Source: a virus. From it: 64,000 nucleotides of DNA. The notes beneath the pieces are model-generated. The model was not told the origin of the DNA, did no database searches, and worked only from the letters and a program-made list of their open reading frames with translations. Below, piece by piece: positions 1-64,000 of this stretch. The translations under genes were made by a program, and so were the position numbers. How positions within the stretch are numbered: position 1 is the first letter of the stretch; every line of letters begins with the position of its first letter. The stretch lies in IMG/VR virus record IMGVR_UViG_3300035696_000035, positions 1-64,000 of that record. One strand, given 5' to 3'.

Positions 1-9
1 CATGCTCCG

Positions 10-657
10 TCACTTCCGCAGGGCCTGGGACAGCAGCACCTCCAGCCGTGTCCTCCCCCTCATGCCGAGCGGGTGCCTGATGCTCAGCGCCAGCGTCTCC
101 CCGGTGTTCAGCACGTAGGTGAACTCGCTGGTGCACTGGTCGCTGTCCCTCTGCAGGGTCTCCGGCCTGATCGAGCCCGACTTCACCCAGGCCAGCTTCT
201 CCATCATCGCCAGGCCCAGCGCCCGCGCCCACGCGACACCCTCCTGCTCCAGCTCCTCGTTGTGGGCCTCTCGCTGCGCCTGCTCCAGCTGCGTCCTCAG
301 CGCGTTCTCCTCTGTTGCCAGCTCCAGCCGCTTGGCTTGGATCGCTGTGAACCGCTGCTCAAGCTCGCGCGCACGCGCGCGCGCAGTGGGGGGCGGGGGC
401 GGCTCGACGAGCACCGCGGGAAGGCGATCTCCGAGGAGTCGCCCGACCTGTTCGAGCCTGTTCTCGGCCAGCCTGCCGTTGGCTGTCTCCAGCCGCAGCC
501 GCAGCTCGTCCCTCTCCTCTTTCAGCTTCAGGGCCAGGCACCGGGTGTGGCACTTGAAGTCCCGCTGCTGCTGGCAGTCGTGCCAGTCTGCTTTCTCGTC
601 TCCCACCCGGAACTGTGCCACGCACAGCACGCAGCTGGTGCCGTCAGCGATGCTCAT
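10..657 (-). CDS. hypothetical coiled-coil protein with poly-Pro linker
   Basis: 215-aa ORF; LEQ/RLE heptad-like repeats and PPPPP segment; its ATG overlaps stop of upstream minus-strand gene (ATGA at 654-657). Confidence 0.45.
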   Translation of the reverse strand: MSIADGTSCVLCVAQFRVGDEKADWHDCQQQRDFKCHTRCLALKLKEERDELRLRLETANGRLAENRLEQVGRLLGDRLPAVLVEPPPPPTARARARELEQRFTAIQAKRLELATEENALRTQLEQAQREAHNEELEQEGVAWARALGLAMMEKLAWVKSGSIRPETLQRDSDQCTSEFTYVLNTGETLALSIRHPLGMRGRTRLEVLLSQALRK

Positions 658-1097
658 CGTCTCTTCTCCGTTCCCTTCTTCGGTGCTCTGGGGTGGAGGC
701 CCTTCCGCTGCATCTCAGCCCGGTGGTTCTTCAGGTCTGTCTTCGTCGGCACCCGCCACTCGACCGTCACCGATCCCGTGTAGGTCTTGGTCTTGTCGTC
801 TCCCGCCGATTCCTCCTCGAAGGTGCAGGCGTTGTCGGTGTCCTTGAACTCCTCGGGCACGTCTGCTGGCCCCACGCTGTAGGCCGTCCCCTCCCTGGCG
901 TCGAAGGGTTCCTCCTCGTCCAGCTCCGCCCACTCGGCGGTGATCTGCAGGCCGTCCCTCAGGTTGTCCCGGCACTCCTCCGGCGTCGCTCCCTGGGCCA
1001 CGTAGTAGTAGTCGGTGCAGCCCGCCACCCAGGCCACCTCGTCCCACAGCATCACGAAGGTGAAGGTCCGGCTCTTGGTTGTCTCCCGCGCTTTCAT
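654..1097 (-). CDS. hypothetical protein (HicB/UPF0150-like fold suspected)
   Basis: ORF 654..1421 trimmed to internal Met (MKARETTKSRTFTF..) because upstream 108 codons are Arg/Pro/Gly-rich and this Met forms ATGA overlap with stop of 1094..1432 gene; FVMLWDEVAWVAGC..ATPEEC motif. Confidence 0.4.
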   Translation of the reverse strand: MKARETTKSRTFTFVMLWDEVAWVAGCTDYYYVAQGATPEECRDNLRDGLQITAEWAELDEEEPFDAREGTAYSVGPADVPEEFKDTDNACTFEEESAGDDKTKTYTGSVTVEWRVPTKTDLKNHRAEMQRKGLHPRAPKKGTEKRR

Positions 1098-1432
1098 GAG
1101 TCCCAGCACGTCCCGCCCGGGTGGTGGTAACCACACTCGGGGCACGGTGGGTTCTCGACGGGCTTCTCGGGGGCACGAGCCGAGGCTCCCGGCCAGTCCC
1201 GGTCGTCCCGGTACCTGGCCACCTTGGGCTTCAGGTCGACGGGTACCAGGAACTCGGCGATGACGTGTGAGTTGGTCTCGTCCAGCACCTCGACCAGCAC
1301 GTTGAAGGGTCCCACCCGCTTGTCGGGTTCCAGGTCGGTCAGCAGCAGCTTGCCGGGGTGCGGGGTGTCGCTGGCCCGGCTCACTGAGTCCTGCAGGCGT
1401 CGCTTCAGCTTGTCGTTCCACTCGCGGCCCAT
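1094..1432 (-). CDS. hypothetical protein with C-terminal CPECG..GGTC tail
   Basis: 112-aa ORF, balanced composition, stop/start coupled on both sides. Confidence 0.4.
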   Translation of the reverse strand: MGREWNDKLKRRLQDSVSRASDTPHPGKLLLTDLEPDKRVGPFNVLVEVLDETNSHVIAEFLVPVDLKPKVARYRDDRDWPGASARAPEKPVENPPCPECGYHHPGGTCWDS

Positions 1433-1824
1433 CAGCGTCCCTTCCCTTTCTCTAGGTCGAATGTCTCTCCCCCGAACTTCAGGCTGGTCGCCCGGTACGA
1501 GCCGTCCCTCTGCAGCTCCAGCACCAGCTCACCGCCCTGGTGCCGGCACATCGCGTAGGCGGCGTCCTCGTGCTCCCGGGTGATGTCCTCGGGCGGCAGC
1601 TCCTGGCCGCAGTGTTGCAGGTTCAACCAGAAGTTGAGCCCCCGCCGTTCGTTGGTCCCCTCGCGGGGCGGAGCGATGGTGAAGCTGGCAGCGAAGCGCC
1701 TCCGTGGGTCGGAGGGCGGTGTCTGCTTCTTCTTCGACTGCTGCTTCTCCCCGCGTTGTGCTGCTTCCGAGCACGCCTGGCACTCGCTGGGACCCAAGCC
1801 GCAGTGACCGAAACACGAGGGCAT
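1432..1824 (-). CDS. hypothetical Cys-rich protein
   Basis: 130-aa ORF (CFGHCG..CQAC N-terminus); TGATG coupling to downstream gene. Confidence 0.35.
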   Translation of the reverse strand: MPSCFGHCGLGPSECQACSEAAQRGEKQQSKKKQTPPSDPRRRFAASFTIAPPREGTNERRGLNFWLNLQHCGQELPPEDITREHEDAAYAMCRHQGGELVLELQRDGSYRATSLKFGGETFDLEKGKGR

Positions 1825-1847
1825 GCCACCACTCTACCCGGCACCCG

Positions 1848-2102
1848 TCACCCTGGATCTCTCAGCTCGCCCTCCCAGACCCAGCCGTACTTCTGGTCGC
1901 ACAGCACCAGCACCATGTGGTCCCCGAAGGCGGGTCCCGGCTTCGTCGCCAGCACCAGGGCCACGGTGTCGTCTTTCAGCATCCCGACGATGTCTCCCCG
2001 GTCGCTGCCGTCCCCCGGCAGCCGCCACATCCAGGTGATGTGGTCCCCGCCCGAGCTCGCTGTCTCGCTGGACTTCGTCAGGGCTAGGTCTCCCGGTCTC
2101 AC
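1848..2102 (-). CDS. family-A small beta-rich protein (PGDLV/GW paralog)
   Basis: MRPGDLALT.. N-terminus, VALVLA and YGWVWEGEL C-terminal signature shared with >20 paralogs. Confidence 0.5.
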   Translation of the reverse strand: MRPGDLALTKSSETASSGGDHITWMWRLPGDGSDRGDIVGMLKDDTVALVLATKPGPAFGDHMVLVLCDQKYGWVWEGELRDPG

Positions 2103-62223: not shown

Positions 62224-62681
62224 GGCTTCTTCCCCTTGTTCCCCCTGCTCTTCTTGGCGGGGGTTTTCTTGGGCGGACGTGGGGGCTCAGGTGAGCCGCC
62301 ATCGTCATCGTCCCCAGGATGGGTGAACAGCTCCGATGGGTCCCGGACGCCGGCCTCAGGACCAGGCTCTTCTCCCCCATCTTCGGAAGCGATCCTGATG
62401 ACCGCCAGGGTGGGTGCTCCGACCGTCATGACAACGTAGTCAGGGGCCTGGTCGTTCAGAGGCAGCTTCGCCTTGCGACACAGTTCAACCAACTTCTTCC
62501 AGAGCTTCGTCTCGGCAAACTGCCGACCCTCGCCCTCGGCCAGCATCTGGGACACTGTCTTCTCCCCGTTCGGGGGCAACAGCACCGACACCAGGTCTCG
62601 GAGGTGCAGCAGTTCGGGTGTCGTCAACCGCAGGTCCCAGGTGGGCTGGGGCGGCGGTGTCTCCGTCTTCTTGGCCGGCAT
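62220..62681 (-). CDS. hypothetical protein with basic C-terminal tail
   Basis: 153 aa; PPKKTPAKKSRGNKGKKP tail. Confidence 0.4.
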   Translation of the reverse strand: MPAKKTETPPPQPTWDLRLTTPELLHLRDLVSVLLPPNGEKTVSQMLAEGEGRQFAETKLWKKLVELCRKAKLPLNDQAPDYVVMTVGAPTLAVIRIASEDGGEEPGPEAGVRDPSELFTHPGDDDDGGSPEPPRPPKKTPAKKSRGNKGKKP

Positions 62682-62816
62682 GGGTTGATCCTACCTTGCT
62701 CGACGGGACGTGTTCAGACAACAGCGAAAGGAGGGCAGCCTCGATGCGCTGTCGCCTGTCCTCATCGGGATCCCTGTGGCTGACGACAGCTGACGGGAAC
62801 AGGTGGATGTCCCGGC

Positions 62817-63113
62817 TCATTCCGCGGGGTCGGTCAACGCCTCAATGAAGAGGTCGTAGGCGTCTCGGCGCTGGACTGCGTTCTGCAGCTTCAGGACCCG
62901 CAGAGCGATCTGCAACGTCTTCATGTCGAGCTTCGACTTGTACTCGTCGATCAGCTCCTTGCGGTCGGTCTTGAGGGTTTCGATCTCGTTGTCGACAGCC
63001 TCAACCTTCCCCATGAACTCTTTGACGAGCTCGCGGACGGCGTTGATCTCGTCCGGCATCATCTCAGCGACGGCCTTGTCAACAGTGGGTGCGTTCTTCT
63101 TTCCTCGTGCCAT
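62817..63113 (-). CDS. hypothetical coiled-coil protein
   Basis: 98-aa ORF. Confidence 0.4.
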   Translation of the reverse strand: MARGKKNAPTVDKAVAEMMPDEINAVRELVKEFMGKVEAVDNEIETLKTDRKELIDEYKSKLDMKTLQIALRVLKLQNAVQRRDAYDLFIEALTDPAE

Positions 63114-63159
63114 GCCGCCAACCTACAGCTTGGTGTGTCAGCTGTTCAACGATGGACGC

Positions 63160-63963
63160 TCAGAGCGCGTTGACCTTGCTGATGATCTGCTCGTAGTCCT
63201 TGGCAACAGGCGTGCCCTCGAAGTTCTTGGCTTGCTTCTGCAGGCTCTTGACGTAGAAGGTCCGCATCGACTTCTTGACACCAGCCAGCAGCTGTTGCTC
63301 TGCAGCCTGACGTGCCTTCGGGTCGACGTTGTTCAGCTTCTCAACGCCCTTCAGCTTCTTGCCCAGCTTCTGTTGCAGGTCCTGCAGCGACTTGGCACCC
63401 AGCACCGCCTTCGCCTGCTTGTAGACCTGTGCCAGGCTCTGGCGGACCATGCCCTGGGCGTCCTTCCGCATCTTCTGGGCGATCTGGCCTTGGTCAATCT
63501 GGGCGATCATCTTTGGGTTGCCGAGGACCTTTGCCAACGACGGCTTCTCTTGCTGGGGTTCGCCGTCCTCGCGGATGACACTCTCCATGCCGTAGCCCAC
63601 GTCATAGCCGCCGCCGCCGTAGCCACCCATCGCTTTGCCCAGGTTCTTGCCTCCCTCGGGCTCCTCGCGGTGGGGGCCTTCCTCGTGGGCAAACTTCTGC
63701 TTGAGCTTGTCGATGTACTCGTCCATGCTGCCACCCGTCAGCACGCTGACCATGCTGAGCGCAGCGCCGGGGGCCTTCTTGGCGACCTTGGTGGCAATGT
63801 AGCGGGCTGGGTCGTAGCAGAATGCCAAGAATTGGAAGTCCTCGTCCTTGAAAGCGTCCCAGTTCGACTGGTAGACCTCGCCGTACTCCTGGCGGATCTT
63901 GTCGATGCGTTCCTTGTCCTTGGCGAAGATCTCGTTGTAGGAGTCGGTCAGCACCGGGATCAA
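63160..63963 (-). CDS. hypothetical protein with Gly/Tyr-rich segment
   Basis: 267-aa ORF; GGYGGGGYDVGYG low complexity. Confidence 0.45.
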   Translation of the reverse strand: MIPVLTDSYNEIFAKDKERIDKIRQEYGEVYQSNWDAFKDEDFQFLAFCYDPARYIATKVAKKAPGAALSMVSVLTGGSMDEYIDKLKQKFAHEEGPHREEPEGGKNLGKAMGGYGGGGYDVGYGMESVIREDGEPQQEKPSLAKVLGNPKMIAQIDQGQIAQKMRKDAQGMVRQSLAQVYKQAKAVLGAKSLQDLQQKLGKKLKGVEKLNNVDPKARQAAEQQLLAGVKKSMRTFYVKSLQKQAKNFEGTPVAKDYEQIISKVNAL

Positions 63964-64000
63964 CGTCGTGGCGATGGTCTCAAACGCGACCCTGACCAGC

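Follow-up and report, generated by a model that had tools for sequence, protein, structure and literature searches.

A 64-kb non-structural region that probably belongs to an uncultivated lineage of huge tailed phages

The stretch of 64,000 nucleotides analysed here (positions 1 to 64,000 of the IMG/VR virus record IMGVR_UViG_3300035696_000035; hereafter the window) had been described in an original prediction, made from the sequence alone, as the accessory arm of a huge phage. Because its high G+C content (GC) gives many spurious open reading frames (ORFs; 528 of at least 50 amino acids), genes were called with a codon log-odds model trained on the long ORFs of the window. This codon-bias call gave a non-overlapping set of 131 genes, and 93.6% of the window was coding. 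The median product length was 108 amino acids; 62 of the 131 products were shorter than 100 amino acids, and only nine had 300 or more. Overlaps were seen in 63 of the 110 pairs of same-strand neighbours, 36 of them 4-bp overlaps of the ATGA/GTGA type, so that the roughly 130 tiny coupled ORFs of the original prediction were recovered. The genes fell into 21 strand blocks, the biggest with 30 genes and two others with 22 each. ATG (92 genes), GTG (33) and TTG (5) served as start codons, and g131, which is cut by the edge of the window, begins with the non-start triplet CTG. A GGAG or GAGG motif was present 4 to 20 nucleotides upstream of 35% of the starts compared with a background of 12.6%, an enrichment that is overstated because the start picker rewarded this motif. 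The GC was 0.59 to 0.66 throughout the window.

All products were scanned against Pfam and PHROGs as concatenated pseudo-proteins, and about 80% of the genes had no family match. No capsid, portal, terminase, tail, polymerase, helicase or primase family in either database exceeded the threshold in the window, and no integrase, plasmid replication, partition or conjugation family of Pfam was found there. Since about 80% of the genes match no family, the missing structural and replication families are a statement about the sensitivity of hidden Markov model (HMM) searches; within that limit, the 64 kb contain no detectable structural or replication gene, as had been predicted. ARAGORN detected no transfer RNA (tRNA) in the window, and no Rfam family, including ribosomal RNA (rRNA), was found. 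No tRNA, rRNA or ribosomal protein gene was thus seen, as had been claimed, with the qualification that homologues of the bacterial housekeeping proteins GroEL, IF1, methionine aminopeptidase (MetAP; g046) and Fpg/Nei (g108) are present. These genes stand singly among ORFans, outside ribosomal and housekeeping operons, and the map and infA homologues lie outside their usual operon context.

The five phage-type markers named from the sequence alone were all identified by Pfam and PHROGs. The endolysin gene g118 (55666-56910, minus strand) encodes an N-terminal GH24 lysozyme domain (PF00959, 117 bits; phrog_7, endolysin), and its N-terminus, read by eye from the sequence rather than by a prediction tool, has no hydrophobic leader. 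The C-terminal half of g118, of about 250 amino acids, is uncharacterised; it is flanked by proline-rich linkers and ends in a hydrophobic helix-like tail. Relatives have an M15 peptidase endolysin in addition. The nucleic acid enzymes among the markers were a recombination endonuclease VII of the T4 gp49 type (Endo VII; g076, 32109-32498, plus strand; PF02945, 57.5 bits; phrog_2914 and phrog_307) and a flap endonuclease/5'-3' exonuclease of the T4 RNase H/T5 FEN type (g120, 57752-58600, minus strand; PF02739 and PF01367; phrog_107). A homologue of the translation initiation factor IF1 is encoded by g074 (31576-31845, minus strand; PF01176, 69 bits). The product of g092 (39991-41631, minus strand; PF00118, 235 bits; GroEL match in PDB) is a full-length, conventional group I chaperonin with about 50% identity to cellular GroELs, and the Pfam and PHROGs scans gave no Cpn10/GroES match anywhere in the window. 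The adjacent g093 (41665-41919, minus strand; 84 amino acids) keeps its position next to GroEL in the relatives, where it was always found directly upstream of the phage GroEL gene with 41 to 86% identity. It is not GroES-like by sequence, and for its candidate role as a co-chaperonin analogous to GroES or gp31 the single-sequence structure model was of too low certainty, with a predicted local distance difference test score (pLDDT) of 58.

Megablast gave no DNA-level match for the whole window among 50,697 GenBank phage records, nor for positions 20001-45000 in PLSDB. Identical copies of window proteins were present only on short metagenome contigs, by which about 0.6 kb was gained on the right side. 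Samples with fragments of 100% identity are ENA ERZ27256913 and ERZ27256985, JGI 3300033405 and SRR9711195. No record of g001 or P0204 was returned by the exact-protein look-up, and a metagenome scan with g001 gave no match; the scan with g131 led to relatives and not to the source contig. In IMG/VR, the GroEL and major-vault-protein-like (MVP-like) proteins led to Ga0070741_10000068 (IMGVR_UViG_3300005529_000001), a viral contig of 369,475 bp, of which three loci were covered by the comparison. Seventy-five window genes had their best matches on this contig, with a median amino acid identity of 61% and a query coverage of at least 60% in 70 of the 75. The two sequences were collinear, positions 6.4 to 63.6 kb of the window corresponding to 102.0 to 162.5 kb of the contig (Spearman rho of 0.9998). 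Other contigs of the lineage were 42 to 216 kb long, with a GC of 0.34 to 0.59.

About 20 backbone genes were kept in order in the relatives, across a lineage GC of 0.34 to 0.62, whereas most of the small ORFs were lacking there. The backbone consists of the genes for the MVP-like protein, a phosphatase, IF1 and GroEL, together with g093, g095, g099, g101, g109, g113, g116, g119, g120 and g127 to g131, and the small-ORF arrays between these genes form the variable part. The region is therefore built on a conserved backbone, with heavy padding in those members of the lineage that have a high GC. The term accessory arm suits the variable arrays and is only partly apt for the region as a whole, because the backbone is conserved in the lineage. 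The AAA+ ATPase gene g095 (42268-43806, minus strand; PF00004), which is typical of the lineage, had homologues with 62 to 73% identity on contigs of 324 to 369 kb. On one of these, NODE_27 of the ENA assembly ERZ4756920 (324,521 bp), 16 window genes were found in window order at 312.0 to 324.5 kb, with identities to the window of 66% for g095, 61% for g093, 67% for GroEL, 74% for IF1 and 53% for the phosphatase.

Since the window alone cannot show the phage nature of the lineage, phage hallmarks were sought on contigs that also carry a window-like block. NODE_27 encodes, at 101.8 to 123.3 kb, a 630-amino-acid major capsid protein of the T4 gp23 type (PF07068; PDB 6uzc, 7vs5 and 5vf3, E value of 4.5e-30), a gp13 neck protein (PF26809; PDB E value of 2e-6) and a SegE-like GIY-YIG endonuclease. 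This contig is the decisive link, as it carries both a window-like block and a T4-type capsid gene. The search for a major capsid gene proposed in the original prediction was thus negative for the window itself and positive for contigs sharing its gene block. A second connection was provided by the IMG/VR contig 3300015608_001846 (150.8 kb), which has a window-like block at one end (locus L016) and a conserved 534-amino-acid protein at the other. Over 12.2 kb, its far end shared 99.99% identity with an ENA contig (322,887 bp) on which genes for Gp23 and gp13 follow, along with a faint gp15-like match. A third contig, of 357,674 bp, carries a DnaE polymerase block plus Gp23 and gp13. Besides the collinear relative of at least 369,475 bp, the long contigs of other relatives measured 322,887 to 361,059 bp, in line with the predicted origin of the window from a much larger genome.

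The contig 3300033075_001734 (115.7 kb) was followed leftward from its g131 homologue. An NMNAT-like gene, a second NUDIX gene and GIY-YIG and HNH homing endonuclease genes were met in this order, followed by genes for thymidylate synthase, thymidine kinase, dCMP deaminase, HslV-like peptidases and Endo VII; these nucleotide-metabolism and endonuclease genes lie within about 25 kb of the window-like block, and a polymerase follows. The polymerase is of the PolIII-alpha (DnaE) type and is split into three ORFs by an HNH endonuclease gene. The relatives' polymerases matched PF07733, PF02811 and phrog_405, and their best matches in GenBank phages were DNA polymerase III alpha proteins with at most 33% identity. 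A T4-type (gp43) polymerase had been suspected from the accessory gene set; this candidate was ruled out by the DnaE type of the enzyme. The polymerase block, with inteins or endonucleases, recurs on contigs of 226 to 358 kb. In several relatives the DnaE gene was broken by HNH ORFs or inteins, and in others it was an intact gene for about 1200 amino acids (DnaE loci L143, 1448-4674; L151, 4108-6186; L171, 14004-20555). The relatives also have a standard one-piece transfer-messenger RNA (tmRNA; RF00023, 81 to 89 bits; L173, 4607-4963; L174, 4827-5199; L085, 3735-4091), located between the capsid gene and the neck/tail genes; the tag encoded by one of them is ANDNGIAPLALAA.

Taken together, these results indicate, with a probability of roughly 0.88, that the 64 kb of the window are a non-structural part of the genome of a tailed phage (Caudoviricetes) that has not been cultivated and belongs to a lineage with a gp23 capsid, a DnaE polymerase and genomes of about 325 to 370 kb. 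On the gene call, the gene statistics and the collinearity with the 369,475-bp contig, the whole window (1-64000) is best annotated as a non-structural, non-replicative huge-phage region of 131 genes. The support for a phage comes from the relatives and not from the window itself: all syntenic relatives are on viral contigs, and a T4-type capsid gene accompanies a window-like block on the 324,521-bp contig, which agrees with the predicted phage rather than chromosomal origin. Several points weigh against this assignment. The window's own DNA has no hallmark gene; it is linked to the relatives by synteny at 50 to 75% amino acid identity, and a very divergent structural gene could hide among the roughly 80% of genes that are unassigned. 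The genome size of this phage is extrapolated from the relatives. Long metagenome contigs could be chimeric, yet three independent contigs show the same co-occurrence. No large terminase or portal was seen in about 300 kb of the relatives' DNA, and a tail sheath was likewise not identified there. The conserved protein of the structural module, 521 to 534 amino acids long, was modelled by AlphaFold in its 534-amino-acid form (pLDDT of 72), and the model had no significant fold match in PDB, the best being phage baseplate/tail proteins with E values of 8e-3 or higher; its sequence had no PDB match either. In addition, large ORFs of the relatives (781, 708, 534 and 442 amino acids, and others) had no match in Pfam or PHROGs, and a 387-amino-acid ORF beside a Dps-like gene gave no tblastn match in phages.

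The sole rival with some weight, because the window's replicon has never been seen whole, is a tailed phage with a genome below 200 kb, either ordinary or moderately large in size. Some contigs of the lineage are only 42 to 150 kb long, and in a low-GC relative, on a contig of 115.7 kb, this backbone takes up about 28 kb. However, the short contigs may be incomplete, and the genome from which the 150.8-kb contig derives demonstrably measures at least 322.9 kb. In the closest relative, moreover, this region likewise takes up 60 kb, within a contig of 369.5 kb, and g095 homologues (62 to 73% identity) are on contigs of 324 to 369 kb. A small genome is accordingly given a slim chance. Still less probable is a bacterial chromosome, in the form of a genomic island or, in a high-GC bacterium, an unusual region rich in ORFans. 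Such a source would account for the housekeeping homologues in the window (GroEL, IF1, MetAP, Fpg and an EamA transporter) and for the MVP homologues (38 to 48% identity) on contigs binned into bacterial metagenome-assembled genomes (MAGs). It is contradicted by the median gene of 108 amino acids, against about 300 in a typical chromosome, by the lack of tRNA, rRNA and ribosomal protein genes, and by the position of map and infA outside their usual operons; the 28 GTDB loci concerned share the MVP gene and no synteny with the window, and all syntenic relatives are viral, with a T4-type capsid gene, homing endonucleases and a split polymerase. Least credible of all is a non-viral giant element (a megaplasmid or Borg-like element) or a giant virus of eukaryotes, to which the eukaryote-like flavour of MVP, TANGO2 and UDPGP and the missing capsid gene might point, since no plasmid replication, partition or conjugation family was found in the window and positions 20001-45000 had no PLSDB match, the relatives have a gp23-type HK97-class capsid and PolIII-alpha rather than the double-jelly-roll capsid or PolB of Nucleocytoviricota, and the window itself encodes an endolysin that degrades peptidoglycan, together with IF1 and GroEL of the bacterial type, and shows 4-bp overlaps and Shine-Dalgarno-like motifs.

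As for the host, T4-type capsids are mostly known from phages of Gram-negative bacteria and cyanobacteria, and for this reason the actinobacterial-like host suggested from codon usage is not favoured. The high GC reflects this member only, because the GC of the lineage spans 0.34 to 0.62.

A module of three plus-strand genes at 13020-19902 encodes, in order, an MVP-like protein, an SPFH protein and an AAA+ ATPase. The MVP-like protein, g040 (13020-16196; 1058 amino acids), matched Pfam MVP_shoulder (100.6 bits), Vault_3 and Vault, and mammalian MVP in PDB (E value of 2e-22). It consists of an N-terminal CxxCxGxG (DnaJ-type) zinc finger, vault repeats, a shoulder domain and a coiled-coil tail. 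The membrane-anchored SPFH/Band-7 protein, g041 (16275-18197; 640 amino acids; PF01145, 100.8 bits), shares 55% identity with a protein of LR756502, a phage of 642 kb, and g043 (18622-19902; PF00004) is a distant paralog of g095 by blastp. The MVP-like gene was present on at least 20 viral contigs with 38 to 76% identity, and homologues in curated phages of 462 to 735 kb had 42% identity. The trio is common to this lineage, to other huge-phage lineages and to the curated phages. MVP homologues were also found on 28 GTDB MAG contigs of very mixed taxonomy (38 to 48% identity), and at these loci only the MVP gene was shared with the window; some of these contigs may be mis-binned phage. Among open-access papers, none linking vault proteins to huge phages was found. 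Many contigs of the lineage (loci L011, L013, L015, L016 and L175) start or stop within about 1 to 15 kb of the MVP-like gene, on the side of the paralog arrays (window 1 to 12 kb), and these ends could reflect either assembly breaks caused by repeats or a physical end of the genome.

The hyper-expanded paralogs claimed earlier were confirmed by blastp clustering and iterated HMM searches, which define the families described here. Nineteen of the 131 genes (15%) encode small proteins of a single family; its members share the pattern PGDxV...GLV[LI]A...LVL...GW and had no Pfam or PHROG match as a family. Six members form a minus-strand array at 1848-3858 (g005 to g007 and g010 to g012), with two unrelated zinc-ribbon-like ORFs in between, as supported by blastp, HMM and alignment. 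The HMM detected the others, five of them scattered at g016 (4638-4901, plus), g024 (8088-8366, minus), g030 (10208-10498, plus), g035 (11673-11942, plus) and g036 (11942-12175, plus), six at 19907-23296 on the plus strand (g044, g047, g048, g050, g051 and g053; with a weak Pfam Gp23 match), and two at g086 (38379-38657, plus) and g089 (39237-39467, minus). The T4-type major capsid protein of the relatives ends in a stretch to which the last 50 residues of g051 (22554-22967) were 52 to 57% identical, and g053 (23075-23296) contains the capsid motif QP(L/M)S(M/L)P.G..FYLDYTYG; both belong to the 19-member family and have orthologues in the 369-kb relative. Profile scans for relatives of the family gave no confirmed match with a 3-member alignment, and the 12-member alignment was too divergent. 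A second family of four was found by blastp, in two pairs: g025 and g026 (8366-8964, minus) and g055 and g056 (23869-24499, plus). Further paralog pairs are the AAA+ ATPases g043/g095 and the glycosyltransferases g078/g081.

The sequences raise the idea that g040, g041 and g043 might build a vault-like or membrane-associated shell inside the bacterium and that the small-protein family might interact with capsid assembly, the latter because some members end in capsid-protein-like peptides. We regard this combined proposal as rather improbable. If it were true, the MVP/SPFH/AAA+ shell would be a second type of phage-made compartment besides the chimallivirus nucleus.

The remaining annotated genes are mostly enzymes. 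The plus-strand genes g046 (20520-21263; PF00557, 169 bits) and g066 (28184-28927; PF00149; phrog_246) encode an M24 methionine aminopeptidase and a NinI-like Ser/Thr metallophosphatase. A glycan cluster at 33200-36569, on both strands (PF03275, 243 bits; PF13704; PF00535), comprises g078 (GT2_4-like), g079 (UDP-galactopyranose mutase, 33985-35091), g080 (GT2) and, on the minus strand, g081, the paralog of g078. On the minus strand, g097 (44676-45500; PF05742) is a TANGO2-family gene and g099 (46085-46978; PF03747) encodes an ADP-ribosylglycohydrolase, with g098, which has no assigned function, between them. They are followed by g108 (49707-50603, minus; PF06831 and PF01149), for an Fpg/Nei DNA glycosylase, and g109 (50756-51544, plus; PF13365), for a trypsin-like protease. 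The minus-strand block g112 to g116 (52615-55150), which had a phrog_624 match at an E value of 6e-56, includes genes for a UDP-sugar pyrophosphorylase (g112; PF01704), a DenV-like protein (g113, 53678-54187; PF03013, 28.9 bits) and a NUDIX hydrolase (g116, 54587-55150; PF00293). A conserved minus-strand block with no assigned function as a whole, g122 to g131 (58881-64000), is kept in the relatives L061, L065, L066 and L178 to L180 and is present on the identical metagenome contig L057; within it, g124 (60118-60522, minus) had a family match to EamA transporters. The lineage-conserved g122 (58881-59804, minus; 307 amino acids) matched phrog_10081, annotated as transposase (E value of 3e-22), a label that looks doubtful because no Pfam domain was found. 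The gene g131 is truncated by the window end, and its full-length product has 356 amino acids. Beyond position 64000 (L057, 2-1457; L065, 85-1222; L066, 378-932), the next genes, both in this population and in relatives, encode a second NUDIX hydrolase and an NMNAT-like nucleotidyltransferase, and NAD synthetase and NAMPT genes occur in the relatives. This set of genes, together with g099 and g116, suggests an NAD/ADP-ribose module.

From family membership, the annotated products would point to host takeover and to maintenance over a long infection cycle, and roles of the backbone genes inside the infected cell are expected as follows. To judge from the 21 strand blocks, the region may be transcribed as long co-directional blocks, and translation is probably coupled across the 4-bp overlaps. 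The window would thereby resemble the plastic periphery of T4-like genomes, with tiny, presumably co-translated ORFs between backbone auxiliary genes. T4-type capsid proteins are classic GroEL clients, and the phage GroEL would suit a GroEL-dependent T4-type capsid protein. IF1 and MetAP are predicted to act in translation start and N-terminal processing, and Fpg/Nei, the DenV-like protein, Endo VII and FEN in DNA repair and branch resolution. The NUDIX hydrolase and ADP-ribosylglycohydrolase may serve ADP-ribose, NAD-linked and nucleotide turnover; UDPGP, Glf and the glycosyltransferases may modify sugar nucleotides or glycans, and lysis would depend on the GH24 endolysin. The MVP-like, SPFH and AAA proteins form a putative module without an assigned role. 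The capsid, tail, packaging and replication genes presumably lie on other parts of the replicon, at distances ranging from tens of kb to more than 100 kb.

Given this replicon identity, other observations in the window are to be interpreted in the setting of a lytic huge phage instead of a cellular genome. Huge phages are a known kind of entity, and this lineage is an uncultivated addition to them: a soil/environmental huge-phage lineage is outlined that has no DNA-level match among GenBank phages. Besides a T4-type capsid and a DnaE polymerase, it has GroEL, IF1 and MetAP of its own and a homologue of vault proteins, with a tmRNA seen in relatives, and it extends the picture of host-function replacement by phages of more than 300 kb. 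The g095 protein, the structural-module protein of 521 to 534 amino acids and Gp23 provide handles for finding the remaining genome and the host.

Plastic (hyperplastic) regions of T4-superfamily myophage genomes have reportedly been described by Comeau and Krisch. The window is like the T4 superfamily in its runs of small, tightly packed, often overlapping ORFs between conserved modules, and in its GH24 'e' lysozyme, gp49 Endo VII, RNase H/FEN, DenV-like and NUDIX genes. The relatives add td, tk, cd, RNA ligase and homing endonucleases of the Seg/Mob type, as well as the gp23-type capsid protein and the gp13 neck protein; the gp15-like match was only faint. On the other hand, the genomes of the lineage are roughly double the size of those of the largest classical T4-like phages, its polymerase is DnaE (family C) and not gp43 (family B), it has its own GroEL, IF1, MetAP and MVP/SPFH module, and a single paralog family makes up 15% of the window genes. 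Because the polymerase is not gp43, the lineage is considered to have a T4-type virion module without being a strict T4-like phage.

The huge phages LR756500 to LR756503 of Al-Shayeb et al. 2020 (462-735 kb; PMC7162821) are likewise metagenome-derived, exceed 200 kb and carry translation-related genes such as IF1, whose presence in huge phages was already documented (PMC7162821). They encode homologues of the window's MVP-like (42% identity), SPFH (55%) and GroEL (47%) proteins. In contrast, their GC is 0.24 to 0.31 compared with 0.61 here, there is no DNA-level similarity, and no synteny with the window was found around the MVP and SPFH genes of LR756500 and LR756502. These phages are therefore separate lineages that share few genes with the one described here.

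The chaperonin has a precedent in Pseudomonas phage EL, which encodes a GroEL-like protein, and in T4 the co-chaperonin gp31 is needed for gp23 folding. As in EL, a large myophage would here have a GroEL-class chaperonin without a recognisable GroES, but the window GroEL, unlike the EL and gp31 proteins, is a full-length, conventional group I sequence. For the paralogs, the closest parallel is Bacillus phage G, in which about 35 copies of a zinc-ribbon protein represent a lineage-specific expansion (PMC7824862). In both cases a single small protein family has been amplified many-fold in one phage genome; that of the window, however, is built on a PGDxV...GW domain, and some of its members carry capsid-fragment-like tails.

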